Assembly: GCA_044867425.1 (NCBI GenBank)
Contig: JBIOUX010000164.1
Coordinates: forward strand, 1,367 to 65,366
DNA from: Acidimicrobiia bacterium
GTDB lineage: Bacteria; Actinomycetota; Acidimicrobiia; IMCC26256; BP-133
Length of the DNA: 64,000 nt
Direction of reading: 5' to 3'
The notes under the pieces are model-generated. The model had not been told where the DNA came from and did no database searches. It saw only the letters and a program-made list of their open reading frames with translations. This document shows, piece by piece, positions 1 to 39,726 of the stretch; position 1 is the first letter of the stretch, and the number at the start of each line of letters is the position of its first letter. The position numbers were made by a program, and so were the translations under genes.

Positions 1-1695
1 CTCCTGGGTGACGAAGGCCACGGGCGCTGGCTGGTGGCGCCGGCGGGCGGAATCCGCCGCACCCGACGCCGCTACCGCGGGCATTCCCTGGTGCTGGAGA
101 CGGAGTTCGAAACCGATGCCGGCGTCGTCCGGGTCGTTGACTGCATGCCCCATCGCCACCAGTACGCCGACGTGGCCCGCCTGGTGGAGGGCGTGTCCGG
201 CCGGGTGCCCATGCGGATGCAGCTGGTGATGCGATTCGACTATGGCTCGATCATCCCCTGGGTGCGGCGTCAGGGCGACGCTCTGCTGGCGGTGGCGGGA
301 CCGGACGCCCTCACGCTGCGGGCAGGAGTTCCCGTGCGGGGTGAGGACATGACCACGGTGGCCGACTTCACGGTGGAGGCGGGTCACCGTGTCCCCTTCT
401 CACTCACCTGGCATTCCCCCACGGACCCGCCGCCGGTCCCCATCGACGTCGAACGGTTGATCGCCGACACCGAGGAGTGGTGGGCGCAGTGGGCGTCGCG
501 CGGTACCTACACCGGGCGGTGGGCCGACGCCGTGACCCGATCCCTGGTCACCCTCAAAGCCCTGACCTTCGAGCCGACGGGCGGGATCGTGGCTGCCGCT
601 ACCACCTCCTTGCCCGAGGCGCTGGGCGGTGTCCGCAACTGGGACTACCGCTACTGCTGGCTTCGGGACGCCACCTTCACCCTCTACTCCCTCATGGTGG
701 CGGGGTATTCCGAGGAGGCCACTGCCTGGCGGGACTGGCTCTTGCGGGCGGTGGCGGGTGACCCGGCCGACCTCCAGATCATGTACGGACCGGCGGGCGA
801 GCGTCGCCTGACGGAGATCGAGCTCGATTGGCTGCCCGGCTATGAAGGGTCTCGCCCGGTCCGGATCGGGAACGCCGCCTCCCGCCAGTTCCAGCTCGAC
901 GTCTACGGCGAGCTGATGGACGCCCTGCACCAGGCTCGGCGGAGCGACCTCGAACCCGACGTGACCGCTTGGCAGCTCCAGCGCACCCTCGTCGAGTTCC
1001 TGGAGTCGGCCTGGCGGGAACCGGATGAGGGCATCTGGGAGGTGCGCGGCCCCCGACGGCACTTCACCCACTCCAAGGTGATGGCGTGGGTGGCCCTCGA
1101 CCGCTCGGTGAAGGCGGTGGAGCGCTTCGGGCTCGAAGGGCCCGCTGGCCGGTGGCGGGCGCTGCGAGCCGAGATCCACGACGAGGTGTGCCGGGAAGGG
1201 TTCGACCCCGAGCGCCAGACGTTCACCCAGTACTACGGCTCGACCGAGCTTGACGCCGCCCTGCTCATGATTCCCCTGGTCGGGTTCCTGCCCGGCAACG
1301 ATCCCCGGGTGGCGGGGACGGCCGCGGCCATCGAGCGTCACCTCTGCCAGGACGGTTTGGTGATGCGCTACTCACAGCCCGGCACCGGGCCGACGGCGGA
1401 CACCGGGCTCGGCGCGGTTGATGGGCTCCCGCCCGGTGAAGGCGCCTTCTTGGCCTGTTCCTTCTGGCTGGCCGACAACTTCATCCTCTCCGGGCGTAGG
1501 CGGGAGGCGGAGGCCCTCTTCGAGCGGCTCCTCGACCTGCGCAACGACGTGGGACTGCTGGCCGAGCAGTACGACACCGTCGCCCGCCGGCTGGTGGGCA
1601 ATTTCCCGCAGGCGTTCTCCCATGTGGGGCTGGTGAACACGGCCCAGAATCTGTCCCGGCGGCACGGCCCCGCCCGGCATCGTCAGGCCCGGTGA
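1..1695 (+). CDS. Glycoside hydrolase family 15 (glucoamylase/trehalase-like), 5' end cut by window edge
   Basis: Frame 1 is open from base 1 (LLGDEGHGRWLVAP...), so the ORF track start at 34 is internal. The (alpha/alpha)6-barrel-type sequence includes WDYRYCWLRDA and QFQLDVYGE. Confidence 0.85.
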   Translation, partial: LLGDEGHGRWLVAPAGGIRRTRRRYRGHSLVLETEFETDAGVVRVVDCMPHRHQYADVARLVEGVSGRVPMRMQLVMRFDYGSIIPWVRRQGDALLAVAGPDALTLRAGVPVRGEDMTTVADFTVEAGHRVPFSLTWHSPTDPPPVPIDVERLIADTEEWWAQWASRGTYTGRWADAVTRSLVTLKALTFEPTGGIVAAATTSLPEALGGVRNWDYRYCWLRDATFTLYSLMVAGYSEEATAWRDWLLRAVAGDPADLQIMYGPAGERRLTEIELDWLPGYEGSRPVRIGNAASRQFQLDVYGELMDALHQARRSDLEPDVTAWQLQRTLVEFLESAWREPDEGIWEVRGPRRHFTHSKVMAWVALDRSVKAVERFGLEGPAGRWRALRAEIHDEVCREGFDPERQTFTQYYGSTELDAALLMIPLVGFLPGNDPRVAGTAAAIERHLCQDGLVMRYSQPGTGPTADTGLGAVDGLPPGEGAFLACSFWLADNFILSGRRREAEALFERLLDLRNDVGLLAEQYDTVARRLVGNFPQAFSHVGLVNTAQNLSRRHGPARHRQAR

Positions 1696-4359: not shown

Positions 4360-6228
4360 TCAGGGCGCCAGCTTCAACCGGTAGCTCTTCTTCAATTCGT
4401 CGAGAAAGACCATCTCCCGGTTGGACGAGAACTCGCCCGACTCCACGTTCCCATCAGGGAAGGCCATCAGCTCGCAGTCGGGCAAGCGGCCGAGGAAGCT
4501 CTTGAGCAACCCGGAGCCGTCCTTGGACCGGTAGAGATGGACCACCTGGTGGGACGAGGTGATGAGCAGCTTCCCGTCCGGAGACTGGCGCACCACCGAC
4601 ACGTCCTTGCTGTTGCCCAGTTCGCCGATGTAGGTGGGGACGTTGGTCACGCCCGGCGTCAGCGACGCGAAGCGGTAGAGGCGGGCGTGGGGTGTCATCT
4701 TGGCCACCAGCACCAGGTAACCCTGGTGGATGAACGACGCCTCGGTGTTGTGGCTGCTGTCGGGGAAGGCGTAGTGGTACTTGTTCAGCAGCTTGGCTTC
4801 GGTGGCCGTGTCGGGGTCGGGCTCGAGCACCTCGTAGATGTCGGTGTAGACGCCCGTGGATGTGGGCTGGCCACTCTCCACGATCCACAGATGGCCCTTG
4901 CCGTCGGGCCCCACGTTGTAGCTGACCTCTTCCCAGTCGCCGTTGAAGGCACCCGGGATCGGGATCTCCTTCGAGGTGACGTTGCCCGCCGAGTCGATGC
5001 GCACGGCGTAGACCGCCGTCCGCGGCGGGTTGGCCGAGTCCCGGATCATCCAGTACACGCCGGGGTACTTGGCCGAGGCGGCCATGCCCGAGGCCTCGCC
5101 GACGTTGTCGATGCTGTCGGGCAGCTCGGTCTTCTGAGGCGCCGACGGCAGGCCGCAGGTGGTCCCCGTGGTGGAGAGGTCGGCCGTGTGGTCACCGCCG
5201 TTGGGTGATTCCATCGGCGGGCTGATCTGCTCCATGCCGTAGTTGGTGGGGGGCGGGCCGTCCGGGTCGTCGACGGCCGGCGTGGTCGGGCCGGGGCCCG
5301 GGCCGGTGGGCACGGGGTCACGGCCGGAGCTCCCCGAGGCCACCGGGGAGCGGGGGACCCCCAGACCGACGATGGGTTGGTTGAGCTTGATGGCGCCGGT
5401 GGAGCCGAAGAAGCGGGCATCGCCGAAACTGAAGATGCCGCCGTCGCCCGCCACCAGCCAGAAGCCGGTACCGCCCGGGGTGCGGGCCATGCCCACCACC
5501 GGGATGTTCACCCGGGCCGAGCCGAGGTCGGGAGCGTCGCCGAAGGCCAGCACCTCGCCGGTGGCGGCGGCCTGCCAGTATCCCCGCCCGGTGGCGGTGG
5601 GAGTCATGGCCACGATGGTCTTGCCCGAGGACTGGCCCGACCCGAAGAAGCCGGCGTCGCCGAAGGCGAAGATGCCGCCGTCGGAGGCCACCAGCCAGTA
5701 GCCCCGGCCCGATTCGGTGGGGGCCATGGCCAGGATGGGCTTGTTCAGCTTGAGGGCGCCCGTGGACCCGAAGAAGCCGGCGTCGCCGAAGGCGAAGATG
5801 CCGCCGTCGGAGGCCACCAGCCAGTAGCCCTTGCCCGAGGCGGTGGGGGCCATCCCCACGATGGGCTTGTTGAGGCGCATGGCGCCGGTAGAGCCGTAGA
5901 AGGGGGCGTCGCCGAAGGCGAAGATGCCGCCGTCGGAGGCGACCAGCCAGTAGCCCTTGCCCGAGGCGGTGGGGGCCATCCCGACGATGGGCTTGTTGAG
6001 GCGCATGGCGCCGGTGGAGCCGTAGAAGGGGGCGTCGCCGAAGGCGAAGATGCCGCCGTCGGAGGCGACGAGCCAGTAGCCGGACGCGGGAGCAGCCGGC
6101 GCCGCCGCCTCGGCCCGGCGGACCGACGGCACCCCGGCGGCCACGGATACGAGCAGCGCGGTGAGCAGCGCCGCCAGCAGCGCGAAGCGGCGCCGCTGGG
6201 GCAAGGCGGGGGGATATGGCTGCGACAC
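4360..6228 (-). CDS. Secreted repeat protein: signal peptide, six ~42-aa GYWLVASDGGIFAFGDA repeats (beta-propeller-like), Pro-rich linker, ~300-aa C-terminal domain of unknown function
   Basis: 622-aa ORF. The N-terminal signal is RRRFALLAALLTALLVSVAAG. Six tandem repeats are visible in the translation. Confidence 0.8.
   Translation of the reverse strand: MSQPYPPALPQRRRFALLAALLTALLVSVAAGVPSVRRAEAAAPAAPASGYWLVASDGGIFAFGDAPFYGSTGAMRLNKPIVGMAPTASGKGYWLVASDGGIFAFGDAPFYGSTGAMRLNKPIVGMAPTASGKGYWLVASDGGIFAFGDAGFFGSTGALKLNKPILAMAPTESGRGYWLVASDGGIFAFGDAGFFGSGQSSGKTIVAMTPTATGRGYWQAAATGEVLAFGDAPDLGSARVNIPVVGMARTPGGTGFWLVAGDGGIFSFGDARFFGSTGAIKLNQPIVGLGVPRSPVASGSSGRDPVPTGPGPGPTTPAVDDPDGPPPTNYGMEQISPPMESPNGGDHTADLSTTGTTCGLPSAPQKTELPDSIDNVGEASGMAASAKYPGVYWMIRDSANPPRTAVYAVRIDSAGNVTSKEIPIPGAFNGDWEEVSYNVGPDGKGHLWIVESGQPTSTGVYTDIYEVLEPDPDTATEAKLLNKYHYAFPDSSHNTEASFIHQGYLVLVAKMTPHARLYRFASLTPGVTNVPTYIGELGNSKDVSVVRQSPDGKLLITSSHQVVHLYRSKDGSGLLKSFLGRLPDCELMAFPDGNVESGEFSSNREMVFLDELKKSYRLKLAP
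5353..6081 (-). repeat. Tandem coding repeats, period 126 bp for the first three units, inside the 4360-6228 gene
   Basis: GGGCTTGTTGAGGCGCATGGCGCCGGT... recurs at 5863 and 5989 (126-bp spacing) with only a few substitutions. The protein repeat units are 42, 42, 42, 40, 39 and 38 aa. Confidence 0.85.
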
Positions 6229-6363
6229 GGGGCCCTCCGGTGAACGCGGCAGGTCGGGGACGTGAACTTCAGCTCGCGAACAGGTACGAGGCAGCTATGC
6301 CCGAATCCTGCCCACAGCCCCGAATTGCAACGTGGTCTTGACCTTTCCCGTCCGGGTGGCCAA

Positions 6364-6591
6364 GTGGTGGCCTTTGTATGCTCGGGTTCCGTGGGGCCGA
6401 TCGCCTTCGTGCTCGTGTTTCTGGCGCTGCCCATCGGCACCGCCCTGTTCCTGGCCGGCTACACCGTGGCCACGCTGGCCTGGCGGGGCCTGGATGGCGC
6501 CCCGCTGGCCGTGTGGGTCCTCATCGCCGTGGGGCTGGGCGCCTTCTTCGGTCTCCTGATTGGCCGGCGCCTCAGCCGGCGCTGTTCTTGA
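6364..6591 (+). CDS. Possible small two-TM membrane protein
   Basis: This is the hydrophobic part of ORF 6262-6591 (VVAFVCSGSVGPIAFVLVFLALPIGTALFLAGY...AVWVLIAVGLGAFFGLLIG). GTG candidates lie at 6364 and 6367. The start is uncertain and alternative frames overlap. Confidence 0.3.
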   Translation: MVAFVCSGSVGPIAFVLVFLALPIGTALFLAGYTVATLAWRGLDGAPLAVWVLIAVGLGAFFGLLIGRRLSRRCS

Positions 6592-29121: not shown

Positions 29122-29790
29122 CTAACGGCGCTTCGCTGACCTGAGGGGGCGGCGACCGCGTCGGTTGAGGACGCCGGCGACGTCGATGGTGTGGGTGCCG
29201 TAGGGATTGATCGCCTCAAAATGGCCGGGGCTGGTATGGGCGATGGCTTCTTCGCTGATCTCGTGGCCGTCGGCCCGTTCGGCATCGATGGCGTCTTGGA
29301 TGTAGCCGGTGGTGGAGAGGATGCAGGCGTTGGTCACCAGGGTGAGGCAGAGGGCCTGGGCGGTCTGGTCGTCGTGGTGGTGGTAGCGGAGGTCTCCGGA
29401 GTGGGCGAAGGCGAGGAAGCGGCGGAGGTCGTTGAGGGACTCGCCCTTGTTGAGCTGCCGGCCGATCCGCCGGCGGAAGGCCTCGTCGGTGAACCAGCGC
29501 AGGGCGTGGACGGTGCGCAACAGCTTGCCGTGTTCGAGGAGCGCCTTGGCGAGGGGTGCTGGCGGGACCCGGCCTGAAGCTTGGCCACGAGCAGGGAGGC
29601 CGAGACGTAGCCGAGTTTGAGCGAGCCGGCGATGCGCAGGAGTTCGTCCCAGTGCTCGGCGATGAGATCGATCTGGGCGTGGTGGTCGAGGAGCGGGCCT
29701 GCCCGGGGCCAGCCGGTGTAGCGACCCGGCGGATGGGGGCGCCAGAGCTGCCGCTCGGTGAGTTTGGCGATCCGGGGAGCCGATGCGTCG
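29122..29790 (-). pseudogene. tnpA: Tn3-family transposase, C-terminal ~220 codons only, with a frameshift
   Basis: Frame B covers 29122-29556 (AKALLEHGKLLRTVHALRWFTDEAFRRRIGRQLNKGESLNDLRRFLAFAHSGDLRYHHHDDQTAQALCLTLVTNACILSTTGY...). Frame A covers 29557-29790 (APRIAKLTERQLW...IAEHWDELLRIAGSLKLGYVSASLLVAKLQAGSRQHP). The shift is at the G-run 29553-29556. There is no homology upstream of about 29790. Confidence 0.8.
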
Positions 29791-30004
29791 CCAGGATGCA
29801 GGCATCCTTCTCATCTCACCCTTTGGTCACGCCCGCGATCGTTGCGGCACCTGATGGAATCCGGTGCGCTACGTCATCCGTGCGCCGTCTCGGTGGTGTG
29901 GTATTCGATGCCGCACCAGGACCGGCCTTCGACAGCAAAATGGAGCTCCGAAGGTTTACCCCTGGTAGGGGGAATCGCGACACCTGAACGACCCCAGAGG
30001 AGGA

Positions 30005-30870
30005 GTGGGTTCCCCGGTCATGAAAGAGGCTCCCGGTCCTAATCAGGCTGACGGTGTGGACGGCGAGCAGAAACACGCAAGGGTTCCTCAACGCCGCAAG
30101 TGGCCGTTCGTCGTCGGCAGTGGCGTTCTCCTCGCCACCGTCGCTGCCTGGGGCTGGGATGTCTGGCTCCCTAACTTTCGTCCGGGCCTCCGGGCGGGTG
30201 AGGAGTATGGGATTGACGTCTCCAACCACCAGGGAAGCATCGATTGGGGTCGTGTAGCCCGGGACGGCATCTCGTTCGCGTACATCAAGGCCAGTGAAGG
30301 CGGGGATTTCATCGACCGCCGCTTCGCCGACAACTGGGCTGGGCCAGCGAGGCGGGGATCGCACGTGGCGCCTACCACTTCTACACCCTCTGCACGCCAG
30401 GGAACCTCCAGGCCTGGAACTTCCTCCGGACCGTGCCGGTTGACTCCAACTCACTGGCGCCCGCGGTGGACTTGGAACTCAAGGGCAACTGTCGGGAGCG
30501 ACCTGACGGCGTCACTGTGGAACGTGAACTCACGACATTCCTGCGTAGCGTCGAGTCCACGATGGGCAAGGTGATGGTCCTCTACGTCGGTGACGACTTT
30601 GAGGACCGGTACCCCGTCCGCACATCGTTCCAGCGGCCCCTCTGGCACCGACGCTTCCTACGCCGGCCCGATGTCGACGACTGGGTCATCTGGCAGGTAC
30701 ACGGTTCCGCGCGTGTCGACGGCGTGAAAGGTCGTGTGGATTTCAACGTGATGCGCCAACCCCCAAGACGCCGAACTGCCCCACCAAGTAGGCCTCGCGC
30801 TCGTGTATCGTCCCTCCAACCCCTCCTCAACAGAAAAGCACGCTCGCAACCACGACTGTCGACGAGCTGA
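30005..30870 (+). pseudogene. GH25 muramidase (lysozyme) with N-terminal TM anchor, disrupted by a -1 frameshift
   Basis: Frame 2 reads GIDVSNHQGSIDWGRVARDGISFAYIKASEGGDFIDRRFADNWAG. The continuation EAGIARGAYHFYTLC...APAVDLELKG...WVIWQVHGSARVDGVKGRVDFNV is in frame 1. The junction is at GGG 30341-30343. Confidence 0.75.
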
Positions 30871-31342
30871 CCTTTCGTGACGCAGCTCTGATCAGTCGTT
30901 TCTCTTCAGAGTCTCGAGAATCATCAACGAAGAACCCGGACGCGGAATCCAAAGAAATACAGGCACCGCTCTTCGAATCGATGGCAGCGTTGCGACTCGT
31001 GACCTTCCATCCTTGGGCACGAAGGGGCTCAAGGATGGCTGCCATACCTTCTTCAGCGCTCCTGAGCCCCTTGAATGAGAGAACGACCAACCGAGTCTTT
31101 TGCTCAGCTGAGCCGCCCCCTTGGACGCTCTCGTTAAGAACGATCTCCGCCGAAGAAGGAAGAGGGCCGAGGATGCTGAGCTTCGGCGCTGGGTGCGTAC
31201 GATTCCACAGCCCCATGGCCACCACAAAGAAGACAAGAGACAGTGTGACGACGGCTAGGATCATCCATAATATTCGACGGGCAGCACTGCCCCGCCTCGC
31301 CTTACGACCCTCGGTGTGGTGCGCGACCGCCGAACTGTTCAC
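30827..31342 (-). CDS. Membrane-anchored hypothetical protein (171 aa) in lower-GC block
   Basis: The ORF has the N-terminal TM helix ILWMILAVVTLSLVFFVVAMGLW. It is last in the Rhs-strand gene string. One 60-nt line here counts only 28 G+C. Confidence 0.5.
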   Translation of the reverse strand: MNSSAVAHHTEGRKARRGSAARRILWMILAVVTLSLVFFVVAMGLWNRTHPAPKLSILGPLPSSAEIVLNESVQGGGSAEQKTRLVVLSFKGLRSAEEGMAAILEPLRAQGWKVTSRNAAIDSKSGACISLDSASGFFVDDSRDSEEKRLIRAASRKVSSSTVVVASVLFC

Positions 31343-31629
31343 GACTTGTACTCCTTACTCCGCGAGATCTGGTTGGATAGGCGGTCATAGCTCTTGCCTC
31401 GGGGTTTGGCGGCCTTCCCGTTGAATTTGGTGGCCCGCAGATCCGAAATCCTGCCCTCACCAAAGCCATAGGCGATGAATGCCTCGCGGTCAGACAAGCC
31501 ATACTTGTTCTGGAACTCCGCGAGGTACTCAGCGGCCATAGCGATGGCGAAGCCGGTGTCATAAACAAGCTTCTTACGCGCTGTCCTCGTGTCTATGCCT
31601 GCGAGACGGGCAGCGACGTCGGGACGCAT
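31339..31629 (-). CDS. Hypothetical protein (96 aa)
   Basis: The ORF stop overlaps the next gene's start (ATGA-type overlap at 31339-31342). No motif was recognised. It conflicts with the 31574-31771 ORF over 56 nt. Confidence 0.4.
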   Translation of the reverse strand: MRPDVAARLAGIDTRTARKKLVYDTGFAIAMAAEYLAEFQNKYGLSDREAFIAYGFGEGRISDLRATKFNGKAAKPRGKSYDRLSNQISRSKEYKS

Positions 31630-31771
31630 CTGACCGATTTGCCGCCCAAGAGAGAAGGGGCGTGGTGAGCGCCATTTCGCTGTCAGGCAGAGCGATGAGA
31701 GCTAGGGCGTAGGCAAGAAGACCACCCAATGCGGACAGCAGCACACCGCCTAGATCGCGTTTAGTTGCCAA
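31574..31771 (-). CDS. Possible small TM protein (65 aa)
   Basis: The N-terminal 30 aa are hydrophobic (GGVLLSALGGLLAYALALIAL) and the rest is Arg-rich. It overlaps the neighbouring ORF, so at most one of the two is likely to be real as drawn. Confidence 0.25.
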   Translation of the reverse strand: MATKRDLGGVLLSALGGLLAYALALIALPDSEMALTTPLLSWAANRSDASRRRCPSRRHRHEDSA

Positions 31772-31829
31772 GCTTCACGCGTACTTTCGGTCGAAGGCTG
31801 TTCTGGTTGAATGTGAACCGTAAGCTCAC

Positions 31830-32195
31830 CTAGCCCTTGGCGCAGCTCGGCCCTCTGATGTCGAACGTCCGGCGGTCATCGTCCGAATGTGGAACAGGGA
31901 GCAATTGCCCGATGGCACCATCGACTGCTGTCGCCGACAAGGTCAGACCGTCGGCATCGTTGTCGAAAACCGAGAAAGCAACCGCTCTGCCTGGAGCAAT
32001 ACGCTCACCCCGTGTAGTGGCCATGTCCTCCGGCTGCGCCGAACCGGATTCTCGAACTCTGACCCAGACCTCATGACTGCACTGGTTCGAGACGATCAAT
32101 GTCTTCGCACGATCCCCCGGAAGGCAGGCCGCCAGGGCCGCGCTCGAACACAGACAAAGCGCTATCCGAAACAAGAGCCTCGAGGGTCGAGACAT
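31830..32195 (-). CDS. Lipoprotein (121 aa), candidate immunity protein for the Rhs toxin tip
   Basis: The start MSRPSRLLFRIALCLCSSAALAAC carries the lipobox LAAC. The start codon at 32193-32195 lies 13 nt downstream of the Rhs stop (32209-32211), on the same strand. Confidence 0.55.
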   Translation of the reverse strand: MSRPSRLLFRIALCLCSSAALAACLPGDRAKTLIVSNQCSHEVWVRVRESGSAQPEDMATTRGERIAPGRAVAFSVFDNDADGLTLSATAVDGAIGQLLPVPHSDDDRRTFDIRGPSCAKG

Positions 32196-32208
32196 CAAGG
32201 GAATAGGC

Positions 32209-35200
32209 TCACGCCGAGCTAGTGCCATATCGACGGTTGACGCTGTAGTTCGGTTCGGTTGTCTCGCCTCGGACCTCTGGACAACCACCGCCGCCTCGTG
32301 CTGTGTACGCTTCCCGCTCATACTTGTTCCGGCACCCTGTCCCGCGCTTAGCCGCCTCGATCAGGTACTTGATCCCGAATTTGTCCCCGTACTTCTCCCA
32401 TTGTCCTACGTGAACGAGTTCGTGAGCCAGCAGGGAATCGCACGATCCCCCGCAGAAAATGAAGTGGCCATAGGTGACGGCACCAGCGCCGGGATCGGCA
32501 CTGGGAAGCCGCTTGACGTTTTGCACACAGAACACCGGTTGGCCGCTCTTGCTCCGTGCGCACTCGGTGACGACGCCTCCCGAGTTCGCCACGAGTCGGT
32601 TCCTGGCAAGATTGTCCGTGATGTTTGGTCCCTTCGAGTTGACAGGTTTGCAGGCCTCCCAGATTCCGAAGGGACCTCGCACCTTCCTATACCCGGGGCC
32701 ACATCCGTTCTTGCCCTTGCCTTTGGGGGCGTGGCCGTCGTCGTAGTAGCCGACGGGGTTGGCGGCTGCGTAGAGGTAGCGGTTGCCGGTGAGGGCATCG
32801 ACGCCGAGAGCGAGGTCCAGGCCGCCGGCGACGAAGCTGTCTTCGGTGGTGAATCGGCGGATGCTGGGGTCGTATTGGCGGTCTTTGAGGATGAGCGCTC
32901 TGGTTGTACCAGCGGAGCCGGGTGTGCGGTCGGTGAGGGCGTGCTGGTAGCCGAGGGAGGAGCGACCGTAGCTGGAGCTGGTGGTCTTGCCGGCGCCGCC
33001 GGTCTTGGGTTGGCCGTAGGGGTCGAAGGCGGCCTGTTCGAGCACCACCCCCGTATCGTCGCAGACGGTGCCGACGTTGCCGGCCAGGTCGCCGAGGAGC
33101 CAGTTCCAGGTGGCGGTGGCGTTGCGGTCGCCGGTGGAGGTGCGGTGGGATTCCTGGGCTACTGCTTGGCCGGTGTCGTCGGTGAGGTAGCGGACCATGG
33201 TTTGGCCGGTGCCGTCGGTTTCTTCGGCGAGGGTGTCGCCAGAACCCCAGTAGAAGTAGAGGGTGGTCTTGGCCGAGCCGCTCTCGAACGGGTCCGTGCG
33301 GGCGATGAGCCCACCATCGGCGTCGTAGACGTAGTTGATGTCGTATTGGTTGAGGGTCTTGTCGTCGTGGCCGGCGGCGTGGCCGGCCGGGTCGTAGCTG
33401 GTGCTTCGAGTGGCCGACGGGTTCGAGGGGCAGCTGAAGACGCTGGTGTAGCCGAAGTAGCGGCTGGTCTCTTCGCCGAGGGCGTCGTACCAGAACTTTT
33501 CGCAGTCGGCCTCGTAGATGAGGCTGGAGTAGACGGTCACTCGGCTGGTGAGCCGCCCATCGGTGAATGTCGAGGTGGCGGTGGTCCGGGTGGAGCCGCT
33601 GCCGGCGGTGGCGCCGGTGCGGGCGATTTCCTGGGTGATGTTGCCGCCGTCGTCGAGGGTGTAGACGGTGTTCTGGGAGCTGTCGGACGTCTCGGCGAAG
33701 GGCGCCACCCAGCTGGTGAGCCGGTTGAGGGCGTCGTAGGCGAACTTGGCCGTCCCGCTGGTGGTCGAGCTGGCCCCGGGCTGACGGAGGGCGACGGCCT
33801 CTTGGGTGCGCTGGCCGCCGTCGTCGTAGAGCACCCCGGTGTGGGAGCGCAGCACGTTGGCGCCCGCATTCCAGGTCAGCGAGGTGGGGGCGCCGTTGCG
33901 CTGGTAGTCCCACGTCCCGGTGAGGGCATTGTTGTTCCGCTGGGCGGTCTTGAGCGCCCCGGAGGGGAAGTAGGCGTTGGTCGATGCCCGGCTACGCCAG
34001 TCCGTCATGGAGGTGAGCCACCCGGCCGGGGAATGGTCGTAGCTGGTGAGCCGCCCGTCCCAGGTGGCGGAGTCGAGGGCGCCGTCGGCTTCGTAGGCGA
34101 AGCTCTGGGTGCGGCTGTAGGAGGTGCCGTTGTCGGGGGAGCGCAGCGTCTGGGTTGAGCTGGTCATCCAGTTGTTGGCCGCCGCGTAGGCGAATGTCTG
34201 GGTCTTCAGGGTGGTGCCGCCGGCGGTGCAGCCGGTCGTGCCGGAGACGGTGCGGGTCACGAGGGGGTTGCCGTCGGCGTCGTAGCCGCTGGTCAGGTCG
34301 CCGGCGCCGTCGGCGTAGTTGCAGGTGGCCAGGGTGGTGCCGGCGGTCTCGTTCTTGGCGACCTCGGACTGGAGGGTGCCGTCGGGATTGTAGACGGAGG
34401 CGACCCGGCGCACGTTGGTGGCGCCGTCCTTGTCGAGCCGTTCGGTCTGCCGTCCCTCGCCGTCGTAGCTGTAGGCCACGGTGTGGCTGGGGTTCTCCGG
34501 GTCCTTGGTCTGGGCGGAGAGCCGGCCGAGGGCGTCGTAGCGGTAGAGCGACTCCAAGGTGGCGCCGGCCCCGGTGGGTTGGGCGGTGCGCACCTGGTTG
34601 CCAGCCTGGTCGTAGCCGACCTCGGCGTCGACCCAGGTGGTGGCCGTCTTGTAGCGGCGGGTGCGGGTCACCTCGGCGAAGGGGCTGTAGGTCTGTTCGG
34701 TGGTGTGGGAGAAGGTGCCGACCTTGCCCGGCCCCTTGGTCTGGAGCGGCTCGCCGTGGGCGTTGTAGGCGTACAGGGTGGTCTGGGTCTGGGTGGCGTT
34801 GGCGATCACCTGCTGCTGGGCCACCGCCCCGGAGGGGGTGTAGGTGAAGGTGGTGCGGGCTCGTTCGTTGGTGGTGTTGCCGGCGGGGGCGTCCACCTGG
34901 GTGACCCGTCCGGCGGTGTCGTAGCCATAGTCGGTCACGGCCCGGTCGATGCTGTTGGCGGTCTGGCCGGGGGCGTCGATCTGCTTGAGCGTCCGGTTGG
35001 GGGTGTAGGCGAAGTTGATCTGGCTACTCGATCGAGGGGTCGTCTCGGCGGTCTTGGCGCCGTCGTCGGCGTAGGTGACGGTGGCGACTCGCCTCGGGTC
35101 GGTGGGGTTGGCGCCGGGCCAGGAGGCTTGGGTCTGCCAGTCGTTGTTGTCGTAGGTCCAGATGGTGGTGAAGTCGTCGGCGACGCTCGGGGTGAGCTGG

Positions 35201-38200
35201 CCCCGGGGGGTCGTGTCCCTGGTCTTGTTGTCGTTGGCGTCGAAGGCCGACGTGATCCGGTTCCCCTTGGGATCGACCATCTCGACGAGGTTGTCGCGGT
35301 CGTCGTAGCGCCACTTGGTGATCCGGTTGTCCCGGTCGGTTTCCTTCACCGTGGGGCCGTAGGGGCTGTACTGGAACGTTTTGGTCTTGGCGGCGGCGTC
35401 GGTGATCCGAGTGGGGGCTCCGGTGCGGTCGTAGGCGCCGTTGGCGGCATCGGCTGTGTCGCCGTAGGTGGTCAGGTCGTCGGCGGGGTAGAGGCCGTCG
35501 TTGGCGGTTTCGCCCCGGGGGCCGTCGACGGTCTTGAGGGCTCCGGAGGTGTAGTAGGCGAAGGTGGTCGTGCGGTCGCCGGTGCACACGCCGGTGCTGC
35601 TGGAACAGGAGGGGGCCTGCGCGGCGCCGTCCGAGCGGTAGCGCTCGATGACGCTGCGGAGGTTGCCGGTGGCCGCGTCGGGGTCGAAGTCCACTACCCG
35701 CTGGGCGGTGTCACCGGAGGCGTAGGTGGCCTTGAGGAGGTCGGCGACCATGTAGCAGTAGCCTTCCTCGGTGACGTTGGCGTTGCCGGGGGCGGGATCG
35801 GTGCAGCCCGACGGGTGGCGCCAGGCGGCGTCGTAGCGGTAGGCGAGCTTGTGGGTCACGGCCACCTTGGGGGCCCCGGTGGGCAGGTCGTTGCGGCCGG
35901 GGTCGTTGGGGGCGGGTTCGGTGATCTCCACCAGGAGACCCAAGTCGTTGTACTTCATCTTCGTCTCGTTGCCGAGCCCGTCCTTCTTGGAGTAGAGGCG
36001 GTTCTCCTCCCAGGAGAACTGGCGGGTCACCGCCCCGGCGCCGAAGCCGGCGTCGATGATGGCGATGATGTTGCCGCCGGCGATGCGCCGGTCTGCCCCC
36101 GTGGGTTGGATCGCCCCCCGGCCCGAGGTGCGGTAGGTGACCTGGTCGGCCGCCGGGGAGGTCACCACCGTGTCCTGCTGGCCGGTGGTCGGATCCGGGG
36201 TGCCGTAGGCGAAGGCCCACGTCTTGGGGGTGGGCTGGGGGCTCTGGCGCCGGTCGGTCAGCGTGGTCATCTGGGCGGAATAGCCGCTGCCCGTGTAGGC
36301 GAAGCGGGTGGTGTTGCCCCGCCCGTCCTTGACCGAGGTGAGCTGCCCGCTGGTGTAGGCGAACTCGGTGGTGCGGGCGGCGTCACTGCCGCTCTGAGCG
36401 TTTTCGTTCACCTTCCACAGGCGGCCGTTGGCGTCGTAGACGAAGTCCACCCACCGCTCGTAAGAGCGGGTGGCGCCGCTCACCGGCTCCACGTCGGTCA
36501 CCCCCTGCAGGGTGGTGATCCGCGACAGGCGCCCTGTCGTGGCGTCCCAGGTCAGGCTGGCCACCACGCCGTTGCGGTTGTGGCTGATCGAGCTCAGGCG
36601 CACCTGGCCGGCGGCCAGGTTGTAGTCGAAGGTCAACGTGTCGCCGCGGCGGTCCCGGATCGAGGTGACCCGCCACGTATTGGTGGTCAGTCCCAGGGCG
36701 GGCTTGACCACCTTGAGGTTCTCCGCCTTGTAGATCACCCCGTCGGGTCGGACGAGCTCGTAGGCCGTGACCACCCCGCCGCTGACGACCTCCCGAACTC
36801 GCAGGCTCACCCCCGGCGGGGAGTCCCACCGTGATCCGATGCCGCCCTTGCGGATGAACCGCTGGGTGGTCCCGTCGCCGTCGGTGAACTCCAGCAGGTA
36901 GCCGGCGATGGTCCCTGCCCCGTCGACCACGGTGGCCGACGCCGCGGTCATCGGCGCGGCCACGTCGAAGTCCTCCAAGGCGCCTTCCACGCCGTCGAGG
37001 CCGGCGTCGAGGTCACTCACCGACAGCGACCAGCCCTGGCTCAGCCCGTTGTCGTGCAGCACGCTCGACTGGCGCTGGGAGTTGTAGACGTGGCGGATCA
37101 CCGTATTCAGCCCCTGGTTGGGGATCGTGGCGTCGTCGAAGCTGGCCGTCAGGTTGCCCGAACGCAGCTGCACGTAGCCCGTTCCCGACGAGCCGAGGGG
37201 GAACGACTTGTAGGGGGCGAACTGCTCCAGGCCGACCTGGTCGGACTGGGCCACCATGTCGGGCAGCAGGGTGGGGGAGAGCGTGACCGGATCGGCGGTG
37301 GAGTCGATGCAGATCGGCCCGTAGACCTGATCGGTGGTGTTCTTGTTGCCGGCCTTGTCGACGGTGGCGACGTGGAACCAGTAGGTGCCGTCGGCGTTGA
37401 CCGGCACCGTGTAGGTGGCGCTGAGCCCGGTGGTGTCCACCGTGTTGTCGGGAGCGGCCGCCTGGTCGTTGTTGAACACCCACGAGTAGCCCAGCACCCC
37501 CGAGGTGACGTCCGCGCCGGCGAGCCAGTTCATGCTGATCGTCCGGATCGAGGTGCACAAGTACTTGGCGTGGCTACTGGTGGTGATGGTCGGCGCGGTC
37601 GGCGGGGTGCTGTCCACCCAGATCCCGTAGTGGCGGGCAGAATCGGACCACCAGCCGGCGTTGTCCTTGGCCCGGGCGTGGACGTACCACTGCCCGTCGG
37701 CCGTGATCGAGGTGCTGTTGGTGTAGCTACCGGTGCTGTTCACCGTCGCGCCGGGGAGCGTGGAGGAGGACTGGTCGACTGATGCCGAGTACCCGGCGAT
37801 GCCGCTGGTGTCGCCCGACGGACCGCTGATGGCGGCGGCAACCGTCCGGCTCGAGTACCACTGCGCGCCCGGGGGGCTCTCCACTCCATGGCTGGAGCTC
37901 GTCAGGGTCGGTGTCCCCGGTTTGACGGTGTCGACGGTGAAGCTGGCCCAGACCGGTCCGCTGCGCTGGCGGAAGTCGTCGGCTTCTGCCGACCAGCTGT
38001 GGTAGCCCTGGCCGAGGGCGCCGGTGGTGACGCAGCCCCGGCCGTTGTTGCCCAGCGTGGCGCTGTTCCCGGACCAGACCTGGGTGCCGCCGCTGTTGTA
38101 GACCCGGAAGACGACGTAGCCGGTGTCGGCGCTGCCGGGGTTGCCCAGGTTGGGGTCCGTCCATGTCGCGCACAGCTGCGGCGTGGTGGTCGTCTGGTAG

Positions 38201-39726
38201 CCGCCGTTGGGGGCGAGGGCGCTGGCGGTGGGGGGCAGGTTGTAGACGACCCGGATGTAGGAGAGGTTGAGGAGGTCCTCGTCGGAGATGAAGGTGAAGA
38301 AGCTGTAGGGCTCCCCGCCGCTGTCGACCACGATGCCCCGGTTGTTCCAGCCGCTCTGGGAGTAGTGGGTCCAGTTGTGCACCCAGGGTTGGATGTCATG
38401 GGCGACGTACCCGCTGGCGCCCGGCCCGTAGCACTTGGAGTAGTTTCCGTCGCACAGCCCGCTCGAGAAGTGGTTCGGGCGGGTGTTGAATGTCACCGTG
38501 TTCGGGTCGTAGGGGTCGGCCACCGGCCAGAGGACGTAGCGGCTGGTGGGGTTCTGCCCCTGGATGTAGCGGTACGCGACCCATTGGCCAGTGAGGATGT
38601 TCTGGTTGTTCGCCGCGCTGAGGTCGTAGAGGAAGTAGCTGTCGTACTCCACGGTGCAGCAGGGGTAGCCGGTGTAGCCGGCCTTGGTGACGAAGCCGCC
38701 GTTGGCGGGGTCGTACTGGCCGCCCAGCGACTCGGCCCAGGTGCCTTGCTGGGTCCAGGTGGGCTGGTTGCTGCGGACGTACGAGTCCCACGAGTCGCCC
38801 CAGTCCTTGGGGAAGCGCACGTCGGGGTCGATCTTGACCGGCCACACGGTGGCCGGGTCGTCCAGCAGGCTCCGGGGGGCCTCCACCTCCACGACCAGAC
38901 CGGCGCCGTCGTCGACCAGGCGCACCGCCACCGGCGCCTGGCGGGGCTGTTGTCCGGTGGCCGGGTCGCCGCTGGAGTCCCAGGCCGCCCCTTGGTTGGG
39001 GATGGACGCGACCCGGATCCCGGCGGCGTCGTAGAAGCCGAAGCTGCCGTCGGCGCCCTGGTGGGCGGCGACGCCGGAGAGCTCGAGCGGGAAACGGAAC
39101 ACGCCGCTGCCCGCTGCGGCTGCGTTGGGCAGGCTGAGGATTTCCTTCACGACGTCGCGGCCCACCGTGTACTCCACGTCGGCGCCGCCCAGCAGACCGG
39201 GGTAGCGGACGGTGTTGCGGTCGGTCGCCGCCGCCACCGATGGCAGCATCCCCTCCAGGGTGAACCCGACGGACCAGGCGTCGGTGCCGACCTGGACCAG
39301 CGGGCCGCCGCCGGAGACGCCGGCGAAGCTCGCCGTGATCGGGCCGGAGCGGTTTCTGAATCGGCCGAGCCCGTCGGAGATGACAGTGGCGTCGAGTGGC
39401 ACCCAGCGCCCGTCCGGCGCCTGCCAGTTGACCGGCCCGGCATAGGCGAACAGCTCCCCGTTGCCGTCGGGGCGGCGGAACACGTTCGTGGTGTCCGTAC
39501 GCTGCAGCAGTTCCAGATCGGGCGGGTCCAGCGGTCCCACGTCCAGCAGGGTGGCTGTCGCCCACGGCCCCGGCGGCGGGGGGAGCGGCGGCGGTTCCTC
39601 CGCTGCTGCCGGACGCACCGGCAGACCGGTGGCCAGCACAGCCACCAGCAGGCTGAGGGTCAGCGCCCGAACGCTTCGCCCGCCCTGCCCCGAGCGCCCG
39701 CGCGTGAGGATCTTCGACAGCTTCAT
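32209..39726 (-). CDS. Rhs/YD-repeat polymorphic toxin, Sec signal peptide, WapA-like architecture
   Basis: 2505 aa.
- Signal peptide: RALTLSLLVAVLATGLPVRPAAA.
- N-terminal DNRLRE-like carbohydrate-binding-type domain (LWPVADPYDPNTVTFNTRP).
- Two Ig-like modules (VDTVKPGTPT, VDSTPPTAPT).
- Dozens of YD repeats (YDANGRL, YDALGRL, YDGEGRQ, YDADGNP).
- Core end: DRQYDPSIRRFTTED...NRYLYAAANPVGYY.
- A 171-aa C-terminal tip containing HELVH. Confidence 0.92.
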   Translation of the reverse strand: MKLSKILTRGRSGQGGRSVRALTLSLLVAVLATGLPVRPAAAEEPPPLPPPPGPWATATLLDVGPLDPPDLELLQRTDTTNVFRRPDGNGELFAYAGPVNWQAPDGRWVPLDATVISDGLGRFRNRSGPITASFAGVSGGGPLVQVGTDAWSVGFTLEGMLPSVAAATDRNTVRYPGLLGGADVEYTVGRDVVKEILSLPNAAAAGSGVFRFPLELSGVAAHQGADGSFGFYDAAGIRVASIPNQGAAWDSSGDPATGQQPRQAPVAVRLVDDGAGLVVEVEAPRSLLDDPATVWPVKIDPDVRFPKDWGDSWDSYVRSNQPTWTQQGTWAESLGGQYDPANGGFVTKAGYTGYPCCTVEYDSYFLYDLSAANNQNILTGQWVAYRYIQGQNPTSRYVLWPVADPYDPNTVTFNTRPNHFSSGLCDGNYSKCYGPGASGYVAHDIQPWVHNWTHYSQSGWNNRGIVVDSGGEPYSFFTFISDEDLLNLSYIRVVYNLPPTASALAPNGGYQTTTTPQLCATWTDPNLGNPGSADTGYVVFRVYNSGGTQVWSGNSATLGNNGRGCVTTGALGQGYHSWSAEADDFRQRSGPVWASFTVDTVKPGTPTLTSSSHGVESPPGAQWYSSRTVAAAISGPSGDTSGIAGYSASVDQSSSTLPGATVNSTGSYTNSTSITADGQWYVHARAKDNAGWWSDSARHYGIWVDSTPPTAPTITTSSHAKYLCTSIRTISMNWLAGADVTSGVLGYSWVFNNDQAAAPDNTVDTTGLSATYTVPVNADGTYWFHVATVDKAGNKNTTDQVYGPICIDSTADPVTLSPTLLPDMVAQSDQVGLEQFAPYKSFPLGSSGTGYVQLRSGNLTASFDDATIPNQGLNTVIRHVYNSQRQSSVLHDNGLSQGWSLSVSDLDAGLDGVEGALEDFDVAAPMTAASATVVDGAGTIAGYLLEFTDGDGTTQRFIRKGGIGSRWDSPPGVSLRVREVVSGGVVTAYELVRPDGVIYKAENLKVVKPALGLTTNTWRVTSIRDRRGDTLTFDYNLAAGQVRLSSISHNRNGVVASLTWDATTGRLSRITTLQGVTDVEPVSGATRSYERWVDFVYDANGRLWKVNENAQSGSDAARTTEFAYTSGQLTSVKDGRGNTTRFAYTGSGYSAQMTTLTDRRQSPQPTPKTWAFAYGTPDPTTGQQDTVVTSPAADQVTYRTSGRGAIQPTGADRRIAGGNIIAIIDAGFGAGAVTRQFSWEENRLYSKKDGLGNETKMKYNDLGLLVEITEPAPNDPGRNDLPTGAPKVAVTHKLAYRYDAAWRHPSGCTDPAPGNANVTEEGYCYMVADLLKATYASGDTAQRVVDFDPDAATGNLRSVIERYRSDGAAQAPSCSSSTGVCTGDRTTTFAYYTSGALKTVDGPRGETANDGLYPADDLTTYGDTADAANGAYDRTGAPTRITDAAAKTKTFQYSPYGPTVKETDRDNRITKWRYDDRDNLVEMVDPKGNRITSAFDANDNKTRDTTPRGQLTPSVADDFTTIWTYDNNDWQTQASWPGANPTDPRRVATVTYADDGAKTAETTPRSSSQINFAYTPNRTLKQIDAPGQTANSIDRAVTDYGYDTAGRVTQVDAPAGNTTNERARTTFTYTPSGAVAQQQVIANATQTQTTLYAYNAHGEPLQTKGPGKVGTFSHTTEQTYSPFAEVTRTRRYKTATTWVDAEVGYDQAGNQVRTAQPTGAGATLESLYRYDALGRLSAQTKDPENPSHTVAYSYDGEGRQTERLDKDGATNVRRVASVYNPDGTLQSEVAKNETAGTTLATCNYADGAGDLTSGYDADGNPLVTRTVSGTTGCTAGGTTLKTQTFAYAAANNWMTSSTQTLRSPDNGTSYSRTQSFAYEADGALDSATWDGRLTSYDHSPAGWLTSMTDWRSRASTNAYFPSGALKTAQRNNNALTGTWDYQRNGAPTSLTWNAGANVLRSHTGVLYDDGGQRTQEAVALRQPGASSTTSGTAKFAYDALNRLTSWVAPFAETSDSSQNTVYTLDDGGNITQEIARTGATAGSGSTRTTATSTFTDGRLTSRVTVYSSLIYEADCEKFWYDALGEETSRYFGYTSVFSCPSNPSATRSTSYDPAGHAAGHDDKTLNQYDINYVYDADGGLIARTDPFESGSAKTTLYFYWGSGDTLAEETDGTGQTMVRYLTDDTGQAVAQESHRTSTGDRNATATWNWLLGDLAGNVGTVCDDTGVVLEQAAFDPYGQPKTGGAGKTTSSSYGRSSLGYQHALTDRTPGSAGTTRALILKDRQYDPSIRRFTTEDSFVAGGLDLALGVDALTGNRYLYAAANPVGYYDDGHAPKGKGKNGCGPGYRKVRGPFGIWEACKPVNSKGPNITDNLARNRLVANSGGVVTECARSKSGQPVFCVQNVKRLPSADPGAGAVTYGHFIFCGGSCDSLLAHELVHVGQWEKYGDKFGIKYLIEAAKRGTGCRNKYEREAYTARGGGGCPEVRGETTEPNYSVNRRYGTSSA

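Follow-up and report, generated by a model that had tools for sequence, protein, structure and literature searches.

A candidate lipoprotein immunity protein encoded directly downstream of a metallopeptidase-like Rhs toxin tip in an Acidimicrobiia bacterium

Introduction

The C-terminal metallopeptidase of VgrG2b from Pseudomonas aeruginosa, which is widely annotated as DUF4157, exerts its toxicity in the periplasm only (Wood et al. 2019, PMC6899460). It is neutralized by PA0261, an exported, cysteine-dependent protein that relies on disulfide formation and acts by forming a complex, and whose enterobacterial homologues are outer-membrane lipoproteins (PMC6899460). VgrG2b and PA0261 have been grouped with Tpe1-Tpi1 of A. 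baylyi as Tpe/Tpi pairs of type VI secretion systems (T6SS), and it was tentatively proposed that VgrG2b frees lipoproteins by cutting their tethers (PMC6899460). In this study, we describe a pair of a related kind in a 64,000-nucleotide (nt) stretch of DNA from an Acidimicrobiia bacterium (GenBank assembly GCA_044867425.1, contig JBIOUX010000164.1, positions 1,367 to 65,366 of the forward strand), which we refer to as the window. It consists of an HExxH-containing toxin tip at the C-terminus of an Rhs protein and an open reading frame (ORF) of 121 amino acids (aa) directly downstream, which likely encodes the immunity protein of that tip.

The HExxHxxQ-E signature was described as that of the PVC-metallopeptidases, now DUF4157/Pfam PF13699 eCIS_core, which are sometimes found at the C-terminal toxin position behind RHS repeats and for which the same catalogue gives no immunity family (Zhang et al. 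2012, PMC3482391). Most DUF4157 domains are located at the N-terminus of cargo proteins of extracellular contractile injection systems (eCIS), where they have either no established role or a supposed one in processing (PMC3482391; Geller et al. 2021, PMC8213781). The sole lipobox-anchored immunity protein in the 2012 polymorphic-toxin catalogue is Imm65, which is associated with Tox-JAB-1 (Zhang et al. 2012, PMC3482391). Our ORF resembles Imm65 in being a candidate lipobox immunity protein; it differs in that the toxin of Imm65 is a JAB peptidase and in that the Imm65 profile does not match the ORF family.

Monoderm bacteria also possess toxins of this general kind. TelC of Streptococcus intermedius, an LXG/type VII secretion system (T7SS) lipid II phosphatase, is an interbacterial toxin with its site of action at the outer surface of the membrane, where its immunity protein TipC is displayed. 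WapA of Bacillus subtilis is a wall-associated Rhs/YD-repeat toxin with a Sec signal and with its immunity gene directly downstream; the tips of WapA act as tRNases, and WapI resides in the cytoplasm. We saw no sequence relation between either of these systems and the window pair.

The Tpe/Tpi group appears to be the closest working analogue of the window pair, as both combine an HExxH toxin expected to act outside the cytoplasm with a directly downstream gene for an immunity protein, a candidate one in our case, that needs export and has partly conserved cysteines. The two differ in delivery and host, since the Tpe/Tpi pairs rely on the T6SS of diderm Proteobacteria whereas the window encodes an Rhs protein with a Sec signal in a metagenome-assembled genome (MAG) of Acidimicrobiia. 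Apart from this change of host and of delivery scaffold, we regard the window pair as a system of the same kind as the known ones.

Results

The toxin tip and the downstream ORF form a conserved pair

The Rhs gene and the ORF are arranged in the window as follows.

31830..32195, minus strand: candidate immunity lipoprotein, 121-aa ORF (from the ORF list and the sequence; the span includes the stop codon)
32196..32208, minus strand: Rhs-to-ORF spacer of 13 nt, coding-strand letters GCCTATTCCCTTG
32209..39726, minus strand: Rhs gene, 2505 aa (Pfam RHS_repeat, E = 1.6e-16)
32212..32730, minus strand: Rhs C-terminal toxin tip, Rhs residues 2333-2505 (173 aa), with HExxHxxQ-E, 8 Cys and a basic character
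32410..32424, minus strand: HELVH motif, Rhs residues 2435-2439 (CAC GAA CTC GTT CAC), presumed zinc/catalytic site, invariant in 23 homologues

The ATG of the ORF occupies positions 32195-32193 and its stop codon positions 31832-31830; the Rhs TGA lies at 32211-32209, and the 13-nt spacer separates it from the ATG. The initial annotation, made from the letters and an ORF list, had described an ORF on the same strand as the Rhs gene, 13 nt after its stop, that starts with a lipoprotein signal and follows a Cys-rich tip. All three points were borne out: both genes are on the minus strand, the N-terminus matches two lipobox patterns with the Cys at position 24, and the tip contains 8 Cys, six of them conserved.

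A homologue of the ORF lies immediately 3' of the tip, on the same strand, in all eight independent loci that have a close tip homologue and enough downstream sequence, a small sample drawn largely from short metagenomic contigs. The spacing between tip and partner is either an overlap, of 4-10 nt in the homologous pairs of other loci, or a gap of ~40 nt at most.

Window (L001): full Rhs; 13-nt spacer
L002: detached tip beside an integrase, a helix-turn-helix regulator and a primase; 10-nt overlap
L003: orphan cassette that follows a different Rhs-type tip and a small membrane protein; overlap TTGA, the contig ending within the partner
L004: contig that opens with a tip fragment; 4-nt overlap of the called genes
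L005: contig that opens with a tip fragment; overlap ATGA
L041-43: orphan cassette that follows a phospholipase-A2 tip; overlap of 10 nt
L045-46: contig that opens with a tip fragment; overlap of 7 nt
L129: Rhs fragment; ~40-nt gap, with the partner (~719..1135, plus strand) missed by the gene finder and found by the hidden Markov model (HMM) of the family at E = 1.7e-16

The pairing therefore holds on a full Rhs protein and in orphan cassettes detached from Rhs. The genes on either side vary from locus to locus, and the ORFs further downstream in the window (65, 96 and 171 aa) have no counterparts in the other loci, indicating that the conserved unit consists of the tip and the ORF only. The initial annotation had suggested asking whether homologues of the ORF always co-occur with the same tip. 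In addition to the eight linked loci, the family HMM was run on the surroundings of more distant HExxH relatives (35 metagenomic and 80 genomic loci), where it found nothing, so that no family member was seen near any of these 115 loci. A search of 185,579 species genomes with the alignment of close tips found no relative, and a metagenome scan returned distant HExxH proteins only. Three members of the ORF family occur without a toxin; their neighbor is an excisionase in L047, an integrase in L048 and a small membrane protein in L044, which is the familiar pattern of orphan immunity genes.

The co-variation of the two partners, another check that the initial annotation had put forward, was assessed with the six loci in which both are complete enough. 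The toxin cores are 64-82% identical and the partners 22-55%, and the two sets of identities are correlated (Mantel r = 0.76, p = 0.0014, the minimum p reachable with 720 permutations). The three most similar partners belong to the window, L004 and L005, whose tips have the same C-terminal extension (…GETTEP…RRYG…). Divergence is much faster in the partner than in the toxin core, as is common for immunity proteins.

The pair also stands out by composition.

30600..32750: low-GC island, 58-61% against ~70% around it (composition profile), which holds the tip, the candidate immunity ORF and two further small ORFs

The GC content falls exactly at the junction between the Rhs core and the tip. At third codon positions (GC3), it reaches 0.94 for the Rhs core, against 0.69 for the tip and 0.66 for the ORF, and this similar atypical GC3 of the tip and the ORF points to a common foreign origin.

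In three of the listed loci, the pair is part of an array of orphan toxin/immunity modules. The segment 1..1899 of L003 is an orphan module array, which encodes an Rhs-type tip and a small protein with multiple transmembrane (TM) segments ahead of the HExxH tip and its partner. The segment 1..1816 of L041 (L041/42) encodes a phospholipase-A2 (PF09056) tip and an 80-aa ORF, followed by the HExxH tip and its partner. In L045, a degenerate tip of the P0033 subgroup follows the partner (995..1456).

The ORF starts with a predicted lipoprotein signal

The N-terminal part of the ORF has the following feature.

32124..32195, minus strand: lipoprotein signal peptide (residues 1-23) and lipobox Cys24 (codon 32126-32124), from lipobox patterns, the AlphaFold2 (AF2) helix and conservation

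The N-terminus reads MSRPSRLLFRIALCLCSSAALAA-C24, with a charged n-region (MSRPSRLLFR), a hydrophobic core and an L-A-A-C lipobox (…AALAA-C24), residues 13-24 being LCLCSSAALAAC. It fits both lipobox patterns that we applied, G+LPP and the core of PROSITE PS51257. These patterns are found in 11 of 12 family members versus only 2 and 0 of the 199 window ORFs of at least 100 aa; because they are rare among window ORFs and frequent in the family, the signal appears to be more than a chance match. All family members whose N-terminus is complete retain the lipobox Cys, and with a single exception the residue at position -1 is A, G or S. In the AF2 model of the ORF, residues 6-21 form an N-terminal helix that corresponds to the signal peptide.

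The tip resembles DUF4157-type metallopeptidases

The N-terminus of the Rhs protein reads, by eye, as a Sec-type signal sequence, and Pfam found no T6SS or T7SS marker on the protein. The core of the Rhs ends with the motif DRQYDPSIRRF…NRYLYAAANPVGYYDDGH directly before the tip. In the tip signature HELVHVGQWE, which conforms to HExxHxxQ-E, the residues H103, E104, H107 and Q110 are invariant across 23 homologues, and E112 and E125 are nearly so. Six of the 8 Cys in the 173-aa tip are likewise invariant or nearly invariant in this set, and an N-K-Y-E-x-E-A-Y motif is conserved. The tip homologues are neutral to basic, with an isoelectric point (pI) of 7.1-9.5, versus an acidic partner.

The tip shares the HExxHxxQ-E signature with PVC-metallopeptidase/DUF4157 and differs from PF13699 in its six conserved Cys, in the N-K-Y-E-x-E-A-Y motif and in its score, which at 16.5-17.1 bits lies under the 22-bit gathering threshold. 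Four of four close tip homologues match PF13699 as well, at E = 4.8e-4 or weaker. In a profile comparison with hhalign, the tip family aligned with a set of small HExxH proteins at 99.6% probability (E = 1.6e-23), five of twelve of which pass PF13699, a result that is partly circular since the set had been recruited with the tip profile. We therefore describe the tip as DUF4157/PVC-metallopeptidase-like, a putative distant relation rather than a demonstrated member, and its sequence suggests that it may have peptidase activity.

The AF2 model of the tip has a predicted local distance difference test score (pLDDT) of 81.9, with the core above 90. A search of BFVD with this model returned an unnamed 116-aa phage protein (A0A3T0IEK8, E = 6.7e-6, 28% identity, template modeling (TM) score of 0.70 on the target) and, more weakly, a 'Vgr2b binding protein' of a crAss-like virus (E = 3.5e-3). 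By these matches, small HExxH proteins of the tip type occur in phages too.

Twelve relatives of the tip are stand-alone proteins of ~150-160 aa that have the same six Cys and their own Sec signal peptide, indicating that the domain folds and works outside the cytoplasm. Those in L049-L056 come from MAGs of Microthrixaceae, Acidimicrobiales and Paraconexibacteraceae, are 45-57% identical to the tip (match at ~5850-6480) and form the closest large clade of tip relatives, located in unrelated chromosomal contexts. These stand-alone proteins with Sec signals may represent the non-toxin ancestor of the tip.

The ORF belongs to a small family with a predicted β-sandwich fold

An exhaustive HMMER search of 1.84 billion protein cluster representatives (E <= 1e-3) gave 15 matches to the ORF, one of which is spurious, leaving ~14 genuine relatives. 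These are 26-51% identical to the ORF, with the near-identical P0001 counted apart. The rejected match, P0008, is a 2565-aa protein with 18 cadherin-like repeats that aligns only with ORF residues 66-91. The ORF loop F-S-V-F-D-N-D-A-D-G (31947..32024, minus strand; residues 58-83) resembles the P0008 repeat F-S-I-F-G-N-D-P-D-G, which explains the spurious phmmer match; the loop looks like a calcium-binding-type DxDxDG motif.

Outside the signal peptide, the ORF consists of a single domain.

31833..32123, minus strand: mature domain, residues 25-121 (alignments, AF2 secondary structure, pI)

The family shares the lipobox Cys followed by a near-invariant L-P-G-D-(R/P) tether, and the residues C39, W44, G83, G96 and C118 are conserved together with two loops, F-D-N-D-x-D-G (residues 76-83) and V-P-H-S (residues 101-104). 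Each mature family protein contains exactly three Cys, namely the lipobox Cys and a conserved pair, so that C39 and C118 probably form a disulfide. The mature proteins are acidic (pI 4.4-5.3; 5.2 for the window ORF). The AF2 model built from the family alignment (mean pLDDT 89.6) shows the N-terminal helix and a seven-stranded β-sandwich, which has the size of a binding module and no catalytic motif or enzyme-family match. Foldseek against the PDB with this model gave only generic β-sandwiches such as thaumatin and the pVHL β-domain, with a best E of 3e-3 and TM scores below 0.5.

Among curated families, the best Pfam match of the 14 family members was at E = 0.036, to unrelated domains that were each matched by one member only. 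Known Pfam immunity families (Imm1-Imm74, Imm65, SUKH, SuFu) matched neither the ORF nor any of its 13 relatives at E <= 1, and NCBIfam, PHROGs and PDB sequences contained no match to the family. The ORF thus appears to be the founding member of an undescribed family, and both partners seem to lie outside all curated families.

The gene is apparently unannotated and lies in an island bordered by a mobile-element remnant

No promoter-like or terminator-like site was found between the Rhs gene and the ORF in a scan around the junction, and a repeat search around it gave nothing informative. We infer that the ORF is co-transcribed with the Rhs gene or that their translation is coupled. The 121-aa start was also picked by the gene caller on a 2.4-kb Logan contig that carries a 99%-identical copy of the same locus, the only match in a word-index protein search with the ORF. 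Two longer starts were rejected, giving 163 aa from the ATG at 32321 and 132 aa from 32228; these overlap the 3' end of the Rhs gene and have no support from the homologues.

The exact ORF sequence, with any of the three starts, was not found in a collection of 15 billion proteins in which neighboring proteins of the window, from the NCBI record, do occur; the gene is therefore apparently unannotated in its source. Together with the uncalled homologue in L129, this absence indicates that the family is systematically under-annotated.

The 96-aa ORF (31339..31629, minus strand) is a C-terminal piece of an SLT lytic transglycosylase (Pfam E = 6.5e-4, profile positions 60-110 of 117), and its stop overlaps the start of the 171-aa ORF (30827..31342, minus strand), which has an N-terminal TM segment. 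Both share the low-GC3 island with the tip and the candidate immunity gene, and may be a decayed second toxin/immunity module. Further away, a GH25 muramidase seems to be divided between two overlapping plus-strand frames, 30005..30574 (Glyco_hydro_25, E = 5.9e-12, covering only profile positions 1-51) and 30433..30870, which has the look of a pseudogene with a frameshift or of an error in the assembly. At 29122..29814 (minus strand), a truncated Tn3-family transposase that retains only the last ~120 positions of DDE_Tnp_Tn3 (E = 1.5e-34) is a mobile-element scar at the island border. A scan of the window for tRNA genes found none.

Discussion

The comparative evidence makes it likely that the ORF encodes the Rhs tip's cognate immunity protein. 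The initial annotation had argued that the gene directly 3' of a toxin is normally its immunity gene, which in this case is supported by the linkage in eight of eight loci and by the co-variation, and that a membrane-tethered extracytoplasmic protein would match an exported, Cys-rich tip, which gains support from the lipobox, the conserved Cys and the Sec signals on the stand-alone tip relatives. It had also recognized no known immunity family, and none turned up in Pfam, NCBIfam, PHROGs or the PDB.

We considered other roles for the ORF. As strict linkage and co-variation would be expected for any obligate partner, the product could instead be an accessory factor, such as an extracytoplasmic helper for folding or disulfide formation, a docking partner or a second effector subunit, and the stand-alone tip relatives do manage without a linked protector. 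An accessory role nevertheless seems improbable, because the toxin-less copies beside integrase and excisionase genes fit protection against the toxins of others, the sequence diverges far faster than the toxin core, and the gene sits 3' of the toxin in orphan toxin/immunity arrays. A membrane tether, furthermore, would hold the product on the producer while the toxin leaves. It is more improbable still that the ORF is an unrelated lipoprotein gene hitch-hiking in a mobile island or a chance ORF. Its apparent lack of annotation, shared with the uncalled L129 homologue, and a GC3 of 0.66, barely above that of antisense shadow frames, would suit this explanation, but it is already contradicted by conservation and synteny: the protein remains recognizable at identities as low as 26%, with Cys, Trp and Gly positions that do not vary among ~14 cluster representatives, its predicted fold is confident, and the tip and the ORF alone are conserved across all loci while the flanks differ.

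The product could also be an immunity protein that is not lipid-anchored, being cleaved by signal peptidase I or retaining an uncleaved anchor, and would then act as a soluble or helix-anchored inhibitor in the wall space. Members of one Tpi immunity family are variously soluble in the periplasm, held by a TM helix or equipped with a lipobox (PMC6899460), and a few members of the ORF family have weak -3 lipobox positions (GAGC, GSAC, QAAC, LGTC). We regard this as unlikely, since every intact N-terminus has a Cys after the hydrophobic stretch, with A, G or S at -1 in all but one, and since a monoderm cell would lose a freely soluble protein to the medium.

Several observations weigh against assigning the ORF as the immunity protein. 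The Mantel test includes six pairs only, and co-inheritance alone would also give congruence. The spacer before the ATG of the ORF contains no Shine-Dalgarno-like sequence. The putative lipobox was called with two sequence patterns, not with LipoP or SignalP, and the presumed metallopeptidase nature of the tip derives from its motif and a sub-threshold Pfam match. With the tip, Foldseek found no PDB match at E < 1 and the profile no PDB sequence at E <= 10, and any relatedness to VgrG2b is therefore at most remote. The stand-alone relatives in L049-L056 have no immunity-family gene within 6 kb and no conserved neighbor, and in L057, where a Micromonosporaceae Rhs has a tip that is more divergent, no co-directional gene lies downstream. 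Because these relatives lack a partner, self-toxicity of this type of tip domain is not a given; they are either harmless to their producers or protected in some other way.

Under the immunity reading, we infer that the ORF product protects the cell, that it is lipidated, that it neutralizes the toxin by direct binding and that the toxin has a target in the envelope, and we hold each of these mechanistic details with somewhat less confidence than the assignment itself. PaaZ cluster-mates with at least 90% identity carry the label Acidimicrobiia, and the host is therefore presumably a monoderm actinobacterium. The ORF would be translated together with the Rhs gene across the 13-nt spacer and exported via its lipoprotein signal peptide, and lipidation of Cys24 would tether the protein to the outer face of the cytoplasmic membrane, a location that fits because the tip is thought to work outside the cytoplasm. 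The mature part of ~97 aa would form a small acidic β-sandwich stapled by the probable C39-C118 disulfide. When the Sec-exported Rhs of sister cells presents its tip to the cell envelope, the immunity protein would bind the incoming basic, disulfide-rich tip and block the HExxH cleft, with the conserved tether and the two conserved loops as obvious interface candidates. The tip and the immunity gene would move as a cassette of ~0.9 kb, on Rhs genes or as orphan modules.

A more specific mechanism is conceivable because the tether after the lipobox Cys is nearly invariant, which is unusual for lipoproteins. The tip might cut the tethers of surface lipoproteins, and the C-L-P-G-D-(R/P) tether of the immunity protein might then sit in the active-site cleft as an uncleavable pseudosubstrate while the β-sandwich, with its acidic F-D-N-D-x-D-G loop, clamps the enzyme. 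We consider such a decoy a long shot; if true, the substrate class of the DUF4157/PVC-metallopeptidases, which has long been elusive, could be read directly from the pair.

In summary, the immunity assignment adds an unannotated gene and two undescribed protein families, the 8-Cys HExxH tip and its lipoprotein partner, to the polymorphic-toxin repertoire, in Acidimicrobiia, a host class that is uncultured and little studied. Lipobox immunity proteins were exceptional in the 2012 catalogue (PMC3482391), and the pair suggests that the Rhs toxins of monoderms include some with a site of action outside the cytoplasm, which a surface-anchored antidote would fit. DUF4157-type HExxH domains occur widely, and a compact toxin/inhibitor pair provides a handle for the study of these domains and of their still elusive substrate. 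The contrast with the secreted, immunity-less stand-alone relatives may shed light on the way in which a secreted enzyme came to serve as an interbacterial toxin.

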